A DNA stretch of 64,000 nucleotides from Eledone cirrhosa. Lineage: Eukaryota. The stretch spans positions 28,892,001-28,956,000 of the forward strand of contig OZ024756.1 in assembly GCA_964016885.1 (NCBI GenBank), written 5' to 3'. Within the stretch, counting starts at the first letter, position 1. Each line of letters starts with the position of its first letter. This document shows positions 27,066-47,600 of this stretch, piece by piece. Under the pieces are notes generated by a model, which was not told the origin of the DNA, did no database searches, and saw only the letters and a list, made by a program, of their open reading frames with translations. Both the position numbers and the translations under genes were made by a program.

Positions 27066-28014
27066 TATATATATACGTATGTATGTATAAAGAGGGTGTG
27101 GTAAGATATCAGGTGGACCATAGCGCACCAGAGTACTCAATACTTATGGTAATAGAGTGGGTAATAGGAAAAGAGTCAGGACCCCGACGGTTGAGCTCCG
27201 GCCGTTTCGACAGCTAGATCGGATCTAGCTGTCGAAACGGCCGGAGCTCAAGTGTCGAAGTTCTGATTATTTTCCTATATATGTATATATATATAGGAAA
27301 ATGTTCAAGACCCCGACGGCAGAACTCAAGCCGTTTCGACGGCTATTTCTGGAAATAGCCGAAACGGCTTGAGCTCTGCCGTCGAGGTCTTGAACTTTTT
27401 CCTATTACCCGCTCTACTACCCTAAGTATTCAGCACTCTGGTGCGCTATGGTCCATCTGGTTCCTTACCACGCTTCCTTCGTTATGTATATATATATACA
27501 TATATATATATATGTGTGTGTGTGTGTGTGTGTGTACACAACACATTTAAATTCTCTATATTTATACAAGTTATCTACTAGTAACTGACCCTGTTCTATT
27601 GAATTGGAGCAGACATAGTTACATAGGATCTACCAGTCAAGGATTTTATTTAATTTGTTATTCTACTCCCCCCCCCCTCTCTTTATTCTATTTTATTTTT
27701 TTTATTTTATGTTAATTACTGAATGCTTGTAGTAGCACGTGACTCTCATTAGAGATATGTGAATGCTATCAAATCTCGTTAAAATTTTTCTGTACTGTAA
27801 GTAGATTCATTACGATAGAACTTCCTATATTTGTTTCTCTAACAAATACTCAGTTGTATACTGTATATTTTAGAGATATTCACAAGTTAATGGTGTTATA
27901 TATATATATATATATATATATATATATATATATATATATATATATATGTATGTATATATATCTATCTATATATGTGTGTATATATATATATATATATATA
28001 TATATATATATACA

Positions 28015-28092
28015 CAGGGTGTCCTTAAAAATGTTTACACACTTCAACAGCATTCTAATCAAAGTTGGTATACATTTTTGGGGGACACCCTG
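28015..28092. mobile_element. Tc1/mariner mini-MITE
   Basis: CAGGGTGTCC...GGACACCCTG next to TA. Confidence 0.75.
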
Positions 28093-41600: not shown

Positions 41601-44600
41601 ACTTATTTCCACGGTTCTCCATGCAATCGAAATGTCCTTCATGCATTTTCTGTTGATGAATAAACGATATGTTTGATATGTCGCTGGCAGGGGGAAAAAC
41701 ACACGTTGTGTACCCAGCAGAGATATGTCTGTAGACGATTGTTGAGAGCTTTCTCCTGCTTACTCCTGTTTTTACCAAAACAATCTTTTCTCAACATATA
41801 TCGAATTCCAACCGTGACCATCCCCACTGAAAGTTTTCGTGAAATAGTCTTTTCAAGATTATACAGAGCATTTGTAGTTGTTCCAAATTGAAGGATGAGT
41901 ATTTTAAACTTTATTTTATCATGAGTTAAGGCTCTATTGATTTTTCCCTGGATTTCACTAAATTCTGTTGGATAAATCTATATCCTGATTCTTTTTGAAT
42001 TGAGTTTGAATTATTTTTCCCACATCCTACGTTAACTATTTTCCCATTTTGACGCTATAGTCACTTTTATATTATGAAATACTGTTGGCTTCTCGCTACA
42101 ATACTTTCTATACCTTTCATTTATACATTTATATATGTATATGTATATATATATATATATATATATATATATATAAATAAATATATATAAATAAATATAT
42201 ATATATAAATAAATATATATATATATATATATATATAAGAATATATATATATATATATATATATATAAGAATATATATATATATATATATATATATCGTT
42301 TCTGAATTGTGTGTTTCTTATTGGCAACATGACCCTCCCAAAGTATAACAATATATATATATATATATATATATATATATAAGAATATATGTATGTATAT
42401 ATATATATATATATATATATAAGAATATATGTATGTATATATATATATATATATATATATATATATATATATAAGAATATATGTATGTATATATATATAT
42501 ATATATATATATATATATAAGAATATATGTATGTATATATATATATATATATATATATATATATAAGAATATATGTATGTATATATATATATATATATAT
42601 ATATATATATAAGAATATATGTATGTATATATATATATATATATATATATAAGAATATATGTATGTATATATATATATATATATATATATAAGAATATAT
42701 GTATGTATATATATATATATATATATATATAAGAATATATGTATGTGTATATATATATATATATATATATAAGAATATATGTATGTGTATATATATATAT
42801 ATATAAGAATATATATATATATATATATATATATATATATAAGAATATATATATATATATATATATATAAGAATATATATATATATATATATATATATAT
42901 ATAAGAATATATATATATATATATATATATATATATAAGAATATATATATATATATATATATATATATATAAGAATATATATATATATATATATATATAT
43001 ATAAGAATATATATATATATATATATATATATATATATAAGAATATATATATATATATATATATATATATATAAGAATATATATATATATATATATATAT
43101 ATATATATATATATAAGAATATATATATATATATATATATATATATATATATATATATATATAAGAATATATATATATATATATATATATTTATATATAT
43201 AAGAATATATATATATATATATATTTATATATATAAGAATATATATATATATATATATATATATATATATATATTTATATATATATAAGAATATATATAT
43301 ATATATATATATATATATATTTATATATATATAAGAATATATATATATATATATATATATATATATATATATAAGAATATATATATATATATATAAGAAT
43401 ATATATATATATATAAGAATATATATATATATATATATAAGAATATATATATATATATATATATATATATATATATATATATATATATATATATATATAT
43501 ATATAAGAATATATATATATATATATATAAGAATATATATATATATATATATATATATATATATATATATAAGAATATATATATATATATATATATATAT
43601 ATATATATATATATATATATATATATATATATAAGAATATATATATATATATATATATATATAAGAATATATATATATATATAAGAATATATATATATAT
43701 ATATATAAGAATATATATATAAGAATATATATATATATATATATAAGAATATATATATATATATATATAAGAATATATATATATATATAAGAATATATAT
43801 ATATATATAAGAATATATATATATATATAAGAATATATATATATATATATAAGAATATATATATATATATATATATATATATATATATATATATATATAT
43901 ATAAAGAATATATATATGTATGTATATATATATATATATATATATATATATAAGAATATATATATGTATGTATATATATATATATATATATATATATAAG
44001 AATATATATATATATATATATATATATATATATATAAGAATATATATATGTATGTATATATATATATATATATATATATAAGAATATATGTATGTATGTA
44101 TATATATATATATATATATATATATATATATATATATAAGAATATATGTATGTATATATATATATATATATATGTGTGTATATATATATATATATATGTG
44201 TGTATATATATATAAGAAAAGTCTCCAACGCTGAAATGCTATAAAGATACCTTATAAAGTCGGGTTAAGACCCTTAAAAGACACAAAAAGAAGTTGCCAT
44301 CGACCGCTATGGGGAATTGAACACCACATCTTCCAGTTACTGGCCGATCAACTTCTTTATCCGTCTTTTAAGGGTCTTCACTCTTGGCCGATCAACTTCT
44401 TTATCCGTCTTTTAAGGGTCTTCACTCTATTTTATAAGCTATCTTTAAAACATTTCTGCGCTTGAGCACTATCTATATATATATATATATATAGGAACCA
44501 GTAAGACCCCGACGGCTGAGCTCAAGCCGTTTCGACGGCTAATTCTGGACTTAGAATTAGCCGTCGAAACGGCTTGAGCTCAGCCGTCGGGGTCTTACTG

Positions 44601-47600
44601 GTTCCTATTACCCACTCTACTACCCCAAGTATTGAGTACTTTGGTGCGTTATGGTCCACCTGGTTCCTTACCACATTTCCTTCGTTATATATATATATAT
44701 ATAGAGAGAGAGAGAGAGATAGATGGAGAGAGAGAGAGAGTGCGAAGATGTTTCAGATGTTAAAGTCCTTTATTGATAAGGCTGTGATATATATTTCAAT
44801 GACGACAGTGGCCACGCGATTCTGCCTAACCAGTGCCATGATCTCATCAGACAGCTTCTTACATAATAAGGTTACTTTCTCGAGGCAATGCAAATTGAAA
44901 CAACAAGGGAACGGACAAAGATGATGTTCTTGAAGCCTTCGCCCGTTCCCTTGACTGGTGTTTTTATTTTATTAACCCCCAAAGGATGAAAGGCAGGATT
45001 TAAACTCAGAGCGTAAGGGGACTTAAACTATATGGAGCAAAACATGTTGTCCAACACTCTACCGTTACTGCCAATCCACTTCCCTCGTCTCCATATTAAT
45101 AATGGTTTCCACTTTTGGCACAAGGCCAGCAATTTGAAGAGGAGAGGGGAAAGTCGATTAAATTGACCCCTAGTGCATTACTGGTACTTTATTTTATCGA
45201 CCCTGTAATGATGAAAGGCAAAGCTAACCTCGGCGGGATTTGAACTCAGAATGGCAAGGGCCGTAACCCTATACGTCAAAGCATGGCGTCCGACCCTCTA
45301 CCAATACTGCCAATCCACCGCCCTATAAAGTAATAATAATTGTTTCTACTTTTGGCACAAGGCCAGCAATTTGAAGAGGAGGAGGGAAAGTCGATTAAAT
45401 TGACCCCTAGTGCATTACTGGTGCTCTATTTTATCGACCCTGTAATGATGAAAGGCAAAGCTAAACTTGGCGGGATTTGAACTCAAAATGTAAAAGGCCA
45501 TAACTCTATGCTGCAAAGCATATTGTCCGACGCTCTACCGATTCTGCCAATTCAATTAATAATTGTTTCTACTTTTGACACAAGGCCAGCAATTACCCTC
45601 AGTACATTACTGGTACTTTATTTTATCGACCCCGTAAGGATGAAAGGCAAAGTTAACCTCGGCGGGATTTGAACTCAGATCGCAAAGGGGCGTAACTCTA
45701 TGCCATAAAGAATGTTGTCTGATACTGTCAATCCACCGCCCTTAGGGTATTAATATATTAACACTATGCTGCCTAACTCTATGCTGCAAGGCATGGGTTG
45801 TGACGCTCTACCGGTACTGCCAATCCAGTTAAATATGGTTTCCAATTATATTTATTCAAAAGCAAAAAAATAAAAAATGGGGAAACAAAAGGAAAGAAAG
45901 AATAGGGAAATATAGAAAAGAAACAGAGAAAGAAAGAAGAAAAAGAACGGGAAAGGGAGACGATGGCAAGAGTTCTGGTTTCGCAGAGGAGAGAGGGGGA
46001 GGAGGATTGGGCTTTGGGCCTAGGGCAAGGGGGCAGGAGTGTTACGCCTCGCTGACAAGAGGACAAAAGCATTTCCCCGCCAGATAGCCAGTGACACCCG
46101 CTGCAACAGCCACCCAACCTCGTGGGGCTCCCTCCTCAGACAGGCCGCAAACGCTCCGATCTTACGGAGGAGCTCGGCAGTACGGGGTCCAAGTACGCCT
46201 GAGGTCTCGGTGGTGACCGGTGCGAGGAGGAAGCGGCTGGAAAACACTATTTGTTTATTTTACGTCCTTCTGCGATGCCGGGGTTTGAGGCCAAAGCTAC
46301 TATGCTGGAGGCGGAGAATGTGTCGCAGCAGGTGGCGTCCCAGATGAGGGATCTACCTCCTTTGAATGAGAAGAGGATGATTCCGGAGAACGTGTCGCAG
46401 CAGGTGGCGTCGCAGATGAGGGATCTACCTCCTTTGAATGAGAAGAGGATGATTCCGGAGAACGTGTCGCAGCAGGTGGCGTCCCAGATGAGGGATCTAC
46501 CTCCTTTGAATGAGAAGAGGATGATTCTTTCGGGACGCATACCTGCTGGCTCCAGTTGGGATGGAAAGCCAGCTGCGTCCAGGCTTCTTCTCAATATGTC
46601 GTTGAAAGCAGCATGTCGGGGGAACCGGCCTGCGCTCTGGTGACAAGACAGAGGGTGCACGAAATAACAGTATGGAAATAAAATGGTTTAATTACGTTTT
46701 TTTTTTTTTCTTATAATTTTCATTTACAGAAGCAGATGTTAACAAAGAAGTTGGATGTTGTCCTGTCTGGAATGTTTACCAGAATTACAACAGGCACGTG
46801 GAACACACTAAGTGATTTGACAAATGTTTATCGTCAAGAAAATTGTACGAAGCCTGCAGTGAGTATTATTATTATTTTAATATCCTTTATTAGGGCGGCG
46901 GCTTGGCAGTATCGGTTGAGGGTTGGGCGCCATGCTTTACGGTCTGAGTTCAAATCCTGCCGAAGTTAACTTTGCCTTTCATCCTTACGGGGTCGATAAA
47001 ATAAAGTACCAGTAATGCACTGGTGTCGATTTAATCGACTTTCTCGTCCCCCAAAATTGCTGGCTTTGTGCCTAAATAAGAAACCATTATTATAATATTC
47101 TTTATTAGGGCGGTGGATTGGCAGTATCGGTAGAGGGTTGGATGCTATGCTTTTCAGCATAGAGTTATGGCCATTTACGTTCTGGGTTCAAATCTCGCTG
47201 AGATCAACTTTTCCCTTCATCCTTACGGGGTCCATAAATAAAGCACCTGTAATGGTGATGTGAGTTCGATTCCCAGACCTGGTAGTTTTTTTGTGTTCTT
47301 GAGCAAGACACTTTATCTCACGTTGCTCCAGATCACTCAGTTGTAAAGATGGTGTTAAGCTGTATCAGTTTTGTTCCTTTTCCTTGAACAATATCAATGG
47401 CGTGGAGAGGGGAAACTTCTATGAATGGACGACTGCTGGTCTTCCACAAACAACCAAAGTTTCTAGGTGCAAATCCTAGGTTCATTCGTGACTGAAGATG
47501 CAATTTCGAGCATTAAGGTAAAATTAAGCTCGAACTGCCAGTTTGTGGAACAGATTGGAGAACCTCTTTCTCTCTCTCTCTTTCTTCATCATCTTTTTTC

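Follow-up and report, generated by a model that had tools for sequence, protein, structure and literature searches.

The DNA considered here is a 64,000-nt stretch of the Eledone cirrhosa genome (contig OZ024756.1, positions 28,892,001–28,956,000), hereafter the window. It contains five copies of a short palindromic repeat, family B (B1–B5; Table 1), which a preliminary description made from the sequence alone had read as cDNAs snapped back on stem II of a hammerhead ribozyme. Family B copies are stubs, i.e., 5′-truncated insertions, of an endonuclease-bearing (EN+) Penelope-like element (PLE). According to the reading that we favor, with a probability of roughly 0.65, stubs form by twin priming on one RNA: the two cDNAs run off the template at its likely capped 5′ end and are then end-joined.

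Family B Palindromes at the Locus

The four palindromes and the fifth, shorter version lie where the preliminary description had placed them, and each is bordered by (TA)n tracts on both sides. In B1–B4, one arm measures 53–55 nt and the other 131–134 nt; we refer to these classes as short and long arms. The arms of B4 show no mismatch across 53 nt. Genome-wide, a 19-nt core of family B has 62,608 exact matches, compared with none for the reversed control. An untargeted sample of 1.184 Mb (the window and 112 stretches of 10 kb, 40 of them beside the window) holds 70 insertions, namely 37 head-to-head pairs and 33 solo arms, equivalent to ~59 insertions per Mb. Scaled to the 3.0-Gb genome, this non-uniform sample gives, as orders of magnitude, ~177,000 insertions and ~76,000 overlapping palindromes. 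All counts of arm classes given below rest on the sampled loci, which carry L numbers. Contigs from runs of other organisms also join family B ends to (TA)n, both ends in run X5 and the long end in run X6.

Table 1. Copies of family B and of its sister family A in the window (position 1 is the first nucleotide of the window).
Feature	Position	Strand	Description
Family B stub B1	27088–27275	−	Long arm 27088–27220 (element on minus strand), loop 27221, short arm 27222–27275
Family B stub B2	27296–27482	+	Inverted short arm 27296–27349, loop 27350–51, long arm 27352–27482
Family B stub B3	32237–32429	−	Long arm 32237–32370, loop 32371–74 (part of the short arm), short arm to 32429
Family B stub B4	44494–44685	+	Inverted short arm 44494–44546, loop 44547–52 (part of the short arm; this arm extends to the initiator-like A), long arm 44553–44685
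Family B mini-stub B5	10149–10249	+	9-nt inverted arm and 89-nt long arm, the latter beginning just 3′ of the predicted ribozyme cut site
Family A palindrome	8528–8718 (ends approximate)	−	Short and long arms, axis in core near 8656; internal control
Family A palindrome	24651–24925 (ends approximate)	+	Two complete ribozymes; the axis falls on the TATA-like box near 24752; internal control
Family A solo long arm	26929–27062	+	Immediately left of B1; begins ~10 nt above the ribozyme core
Family A solo short-ended copy	10020–10125	+	Immediately left of B5; carries a TATA-like box and an intact hammerhead
Family A	17863–17935

The Parent Is a Penelope-Like Element

Non-inverted family B copies extend upstream through a long untranslated region (UTR) into the end of an open reading frame (ORF). 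A search with this 92-aa ORF end returned 52,544 candidates, of which 150 were scored, and several lie within open frames of ~790 codons. The natural copy L117, our reference, consists of an inverted 464-nt copy (100% identical), an upstream pseudo-long terminal repeat (pLTR), an ORF of 722 aa counted from the first ATG, a 3′ pLTR with a tail, and (TA)n. Comparison with L117 identifies family B as the pLTR–ORF junction of the parent element, which B4 matches at 98%. The pLTR, the inverted 5′-truncated copy and the one-ended tail are present in L113–L123, L128, and L129. In six of eight tested cases, the best match of an upstream pLTR is the 3′ pLTR of the same copy.

The 722-aa protein carries YRDD at 348, VIY (the GIY box) at 591, and YIG at 606, as well as RWR at 37, DKT at 117, CxCX5C at 572, CxxC at 670, and CxH at 698. 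CCHH is absent and a single Cys lies between the GIY and YIG boxes. Look-alikes of the protein in the Atlas bear the GIY-YIG and RVT_1 families, and sequence searches of Pfam and PDB with it returned no matches. The PLE origin that had been suspected is borne out by the reverse transcriptase (RT) and GIY-YIG ORF, the pLTR, the inverted copy, and the tail. Judged by its protein motifs and (TA)n target, the parent is probably a Hydra-type PLE. It shares with the Hydra clade, as defined by the motif set in section 11 of PMC8557442, RW[KR], DKT, the CxCX5C linker, the lack of CCHH, CxxC and CxH around E and N, and the (TA)n target, which is used by all five window copies and by copies sampled elsewhere in the genome. 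It differs in its unit length of 3.6 kb, whereas members of the clade are “generally” under 3 kb, and in its non-canonical ribozyme with a U3-A8 core and a long stem II.

Two 3′ Ends and One Source per Insertion

On the L117 reference, 247 of 301 alignments terminate at one of two points ~80 nt apart. Close head-to-head pairs mostly combine the two: 78 of 94 are short+long and none is short/short, while 15 have one unclassified end and the single long/long case is an artefact of the neighbours B1 and B2. The same holds for random head-to-head pairs from untargeted DNA (32/37 short+long, the other five with one unclassified end) and for kb-scale insertions, which were chosen for the ORF end at 25 loci (21/23 short+long, one short/short, one truncated). 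The main copy can have either 3′ end, and either end also occurs alone. The preliminary description had noted that every mirror arm joins (TA)n at one fixed point; this is correct for the short end, but the same end also terminates solo and full-length copies.

The two arms of each insertion come from one source. Subfamily linkers are concordant in 65 of 68 assignable pairs (73/78 parsed), against 15.7 after shuffling, and for 16 of 16 long arms the best match is their own opposite arm. Variants had indeed been seen on both arms before; they are subfamily markers rather than copy-specific, and one linker occurs in 34 of 146 arms. Rare variants were found on both arms in no case and on one arm in 111, a count inflated by indels, and the arms therefore diverge freely after insertion. 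Gene conversion as the origin of shared variants is not supported by these counts. At L001, L011, L028 (near 1500), L005, L017, and L015, family B arms are fused at their stop site, inverted or direct, to another hammerhead-bearing family. These loci were selected by pattern and are hence rare; they suggest occasional use of two RNAs or template jumps.

A fixed hairpin master element, be it similar to a miniature inverted-repeat transposable element (MITE) or to a retrozyme, could be copied whole, or the palindromes could be assembly artefacts. Some junction strings do recur in two or three loci, and near-perfect mirror joints are not among the raw-read joints listed for the Illumina run X24. 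Most junctions are unique, though, and arms pair by subfamily within a locus and diverge independently, which agrees with the earlier expectation that the mirror is made anew at each insertion. As for artefacts, the raw X24 reads contain opposite-strand joints at the stop site, linking L117 positions 4415–4432 to 4457–4516; several are backed by three to four start points, the two largest by one start each, and in run X6 one contig of 60 nt mirrors itself perfectly. A MITE or fixed fold-back transposon would have a constant inner junction, which varies here among copies. We regard a master element or an artefact as very improbable and largely refuted already.

The Hammerhead Ribozyme

Stubs carry the 3′ half of a hammerhead, as described earlier, and the parental ribozyme had been expected to supply a canonical CTGATGA half. 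An intact parental ribozyme does exist, but with a U3-A8 core, present in 45 of 49 extended copies and with G, A, U, or C at N7. Downstream of the core come a long stem II, the G12–A15 box, stem III of 4–5 bp, and stem I. At minimum energy, L117 and L033 are predicted to fold into a three-way junction, and the alignment of natural copies contains three stems around a conserved core, the 3-8 pair, G10.1-C11.1, and the NUH triplet. Hence, the parent is predicted to form a full, intact type I hammerhead fold. Fold z-scores are weak (−0.4 to −2.4), and an Rfam search with the parent ribozyme gave no match; for the window, the 150 Rfam matches listed included only simple-repeat microRNA noise. Compensatory stem changes were seen in 0 of 29 pairs among 18 copies, which are too alike to give a signal, and a model built from these sequences found no distant intact relatives in the 100 sources searched. 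A parent with a canonical core was also considered; its 68 matches genome-wide read as chance neighbours or chimeras, and the canonical core is essentially absent.

U3-A8 covariation is known from Schistosoma PLE hammerheads, where the ribozyme likewise lies in the pLTR (PMC4209133). Compared with the Schistosoma variant as described there, the ribozyme of family B is a full type I fold whose stem III has 4–5 bp and whose long stem II putatively bears a promoter. The loop-II region of the parent comprises ~37 nt. Axes of the stubs fall into a stereotyped region, as had been proposed, but this is the 3′ side of the loop-II region, with a scatter of ~15 nt, and not the stem II loop itself. The neat stem II seen in stubs is a product of the mirroring.

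A Common Stop Site

In the untargeted 1.184 Mb, 39 of the 44 short arms and 31 of the 54 long ones begin at reference positions 1290–1309, so that 5′ ends pile up regardless of arm length. Solo arms end at the same site. The stop belongs to the template, because cDNAs that differ by ~80 nt in length, and solo arms, stop alike. In run X1, contig depth rises ~25-fold at this site. In L117, position 4419 is an initiator-like A, and a TATA-like box is found 29 nt above it; both labels follow the general consensus motifs. The pile-up of 5′ ends probably marks a transcription start. For Penelope, a start site within the pLTR and a TATA-less promoter have been described (PMC2377424), and TATA/Inr-like motifs are reported from a rotifer pLTR (PMC3846280).

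If the promoter lies within stem II, just the 3′ half of the ribozyme would be present at the mRNA 5′ end; this would explain why stubs have only this half. A promoter above the start would also leave stubs without the TATA-like box, and they should thus be dead ends.

An additional feature of the stop site is an extra G. Among 80 junctions examined, a letter was counted where it was unexplained by either arm, and an extra G outside the initiator-like A was present at 8 of 12 junctions compared with 7 of 36 at other ends (p = 0.004, post hoc). A looser earlier filter, which over-called explained letters, gave 2/3 vs. 5/14, which is not significant. At full-length L1 junctions, an extra G is described as a mark of capping (PMC11702581), and the extra G of family B is likely a cap signature as well. 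None of the 49 extended copies has it, an argument against transfer of a cap-extended cDNA.

Two other candidates were considered at this site. Read ends that pile up at 4426 in a restriction site-associated DNA (RAD) run were set aside, as they resemble the mark of a restriction site. A self-cleaved 3′ product as the template would place long-arm starts at the cut site; long arms that start between 1325 and 1411 are scattered and do not cluster clearly there. Arms ending at or just below the predicted cut site occur at window 10149–10249, L156:9362, and L106:5440, and these were possibly templated by the self-cleaved product. A second stop cluster comprises the short arms of L114, L116, L121, and L122, which end 1076–1082 nt above the long end; it corresponds to a C-rich tract in the 3′ UTR and to these four kb-scale short arms.

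Sister Families and the Position of the Stop

Family A has a canonical small hammerhead, a tail like that of family B, and the same short+long palindromes. Its arm ends (n = 47) include 22 that lie 0–9 nt above the core and three that reach the TATA box; the other 22 arms end in or below the core or have a damaged core. The 0–9-nt edge lies ~29–35 nt below the TATA box. Families A and B thus stop at the same distance from the promoter and at a different position relative to the ribozyme. Families D, G, and H have pile-ups of their own at other distances from their ribozymes (read by eye). That sister axes sit elsewhere relative to their ribozymes speaks against the earlier view that the fold dictates the axis.

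Hammerhead-like cores also occur in at least four further families whose head-to-head palindromes, likewise next to (TA)n, are asymmetric and differ from family to family in the position of the axis. Such sites occur in the window at 25067 (+), 40810 (+), 36499 (−), 60914 (−), 5443 (−), and 9215 (+), and elsewhere at L076:5592–5921, L090:3141–3498, L105:9223–9418, and L221:7303–7423.

These positions also bear on a variant of twin priming in which both RTs stall at a structural or protein roadblock, such as the internal loop of the long stem II, and not at the RNA 5′ end. The family B pile-up adjoins this predicted loop, the pile-ups of families A and H lie at the 5′ edge of the ribozyme, and the second stop cluster at the C-rich tract would fit a stall. 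Moreover, the protein PAc (Poseidon of Anolis) is described to bind near its own ribozyme (PMC11167929). A common obstacle is nevertheless difficult to reconcile with pile-ups that differ in their place on the fold, being inside stem II in family B, 0–9 nt above the core in A, and ~67–85 nt above it in G and D. Furthermore, long cDNAs of L116, L118, and L129 have crossed the 3′ ribozyme and ended at the pile-up position of the 5′ copy, and the extra G is not predicted by a roadblock. We therefore consider stalling unlikely.

Junction Geometry Does Not Fit Snap-Back

Self-priming is the published explanation of PLE junction palindromes (PMC3846280; Arkhipova 2013), and snap-back after full-length cDNA synthesis has been observed for R2 proteins (PMC11371274). 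In this scheme, a long cDNA folds near its 3′ end and is copied up to a TA match, and asymmetric centres would result from later deletion within the hairpin. It would account for same-source arms, for correlated arm ends, for the few long-overlap joints, and for the family G axes, which lie on a native 6-nt palindrome.

The strict junction set was reduced from 65 pairs to 50 that are short+long and to 46 with a subfamily-matched parent. None of these 46 keeps the native loop II. In 18, the short arm extends beyond the long arm, in 13 the reverse is true, and in 15 the two end within 1 nt of each other. Joints are often blunt-like, with an overlap of 0–1 nt in 21 of 46, and many others contain inserted letters. 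Only two junctions are compatible with snap-back, and mirror-image cases likewise number two. Among the 37 random head-to-head pairs, seven are inverted pairs whose arms do not overlap at all, and joints in raw reads include such cases as well. In L116 and L122, 1-kb short arms are joined to long arms with a 49–136 nt upstream segment, and solo short-ended copies begin at the same site as paired ones. The stem II snap-back of the preliminary description is thus not supported, and we consider self-priming in general quite unlikely as the rule. A related proposal, displacement followed by a template switch, would have the short arm always own the loop; this is true in the window but fails in the larger set, which is divided 27/23/28 of 78.

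A Twin-Priming Model for Stub Formation

The twin-priming model begins with nicks that the element protein would make in both strands of the (TA)n target. An mRNA with its cap in the upstream pLTR would contain start sites at ~+59 and ~+138 nt and a second pair in the 3′ pLTR, and the target ends would prime on the same RNA, one at each of the two fixed internal start sites. Priming at the 5′ pair would yield cDNAs of ~59 and ~138 nt that run off the cap, whose ends would be nibbled or extended by a few bases and then joined head to head, presumably by host end-joining, to give a stub. Priming at the 3′ pair would yield long copies. Read-through RNA or template jumps would also occur and give rise to upstream pLTRs that continue past the start. 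The 5′ copy of the start sites would serve the stubs, and a protein dimer might hold both sites. In vitro, PAc protein cuts both strands and extends them from two internal sites, and it is predicted to dimerize (PMC11167929).

Several observations weigh against this model. The transcription start is deduced from DNA alone, by position and motifs, and the TATA-like box is good in the main subfamilies and weak in others; above the pile-ups of families D, G, and H, no TATA box is evident by eye. The extra-G test is post hoc and small (n = 12), and three of its eight cases come from one 10-kb locus, L100. Regarding the start sites, the published in vitro assay of PAc found no difference in start site between the strands (PMC11167929), and one insertion of family B, L121, is short/short. 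The 5′ limits of 14 upstream pLTRs include three near the stub stop site and one short of it; the other ten run past the proposed start, which calls for template jumps or read-through RNA. The end positions of the two arms correlate (Spearman 0.55, n = 46), partly as a measuring effect of old copies, and some kb-scale pairs (L131 and L085) end almost together with an overlap of 15–18 nt. Some joints may therefore be fold-backs, and later deletion within a hairpin could mimic the asymmetry of arms.

As a tentative extension, which we consider rather doubtful as a whole, stubs could be the PLE equivalent of retroviral strong-stop DNA, with a dimer loaded asymmetrically on one RNA such that each start site takes one subunit. 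With the promoter inside stem II, only the 3′ ribozyme would be whole; self-cleavage of this ribozyme would remove the 3′ start sites while the cap-proximal pair stays, and output would switch from long copies to ~75,000 promoterless hairpins. A cDNA at the cap could also jump to the repeated 3′ sequence and regenerate the pLTR, a process for which PMC2377424 gives no obvious mechanism beyond tandem formation. The lack of the extra G in all 49 extended copies speaks against such a jump.

Comparison With Known Systems

Architecture, tail, self-priming, two start sites, U3-A8, and the Hydra clade are already published. Typical EN+ PLE insertions (PMC8557442; PMC3846280) share with family B the head-to-head inverted copy, the one-ended tail, junction palindromes, the pLTR hammerhead, and TATA/Inr-like pLTR motifs. 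In family B, the tail, i.e., the distance between the two 3′ ends, is ~80 nt instead of 30–40 bp, and stubs vastly outnumber long copies. The palindromes of typical EN+ PLEs are published as products of self-priming, which the junctions analyzed here do not support as a rule.

PAc shares with family B two internal start sites at the pLTR–ORF junction that define the tail, a ribozyme just upstream, and cutting and extension of both target strands, there in vitro. As presented in PMC11167929, the PAc sites are not tied to an inverted copy, whereas family B uses one of each per insertion; family B also has a 2–3 nt TA match to its target, unlike PAc. L1 twin priming (PMC11702581) similarly involves two target ends on one RNA, inverted end-joining, and an extra G at full-length 5′ ends. 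In the account given there, the two arms of L1 have hardly any overlap and the second site is used opportunistically, whereas both sites are fixed in family B and overlap is usually full.

How PLE inverted and tandem ends are made is called still undefined in PMC8557442. The short+long rule, PLE twin priming, and cap run-off were not found in the literature searched, a scope outside which most subscription papers and supplements fell. As elements, the stubs are unremarkable by-products of a class already known. Family B represents a large natural record with a simple rule that links a published in vitro result to genomic architecture. The rule of short+long arms, one source, and a likely cap can be tested in the existing PAc assay. 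Furthermore, the pile-ups suggest that stubs may mark the transcription starts of PLE families from DNA alone, and the ribozyme is apparently split by its own promoter.

Other Repeats in the Window

A different repeat forms a 283-nt near-perfect palindrome at 4447–4729, and a perfect inverted pair at 36555–36644 has a (TA)n tract at its centre. Another repeat, ~190 nt long, is abundant and dispersed, with copies frequently arranged in tandem; it resembles a short interspersed nuclear element (SINE) by appearance and occurs at 4915–5110, 10796–10982, 20226–20415, 25536–26135, 45161–45755, 51906–52740, and 55849–57402. Minisatellite arrays with units of ~58–160 nt are located at 21028–21694, 48401–48977, 49828–50550, and 50586–51781.

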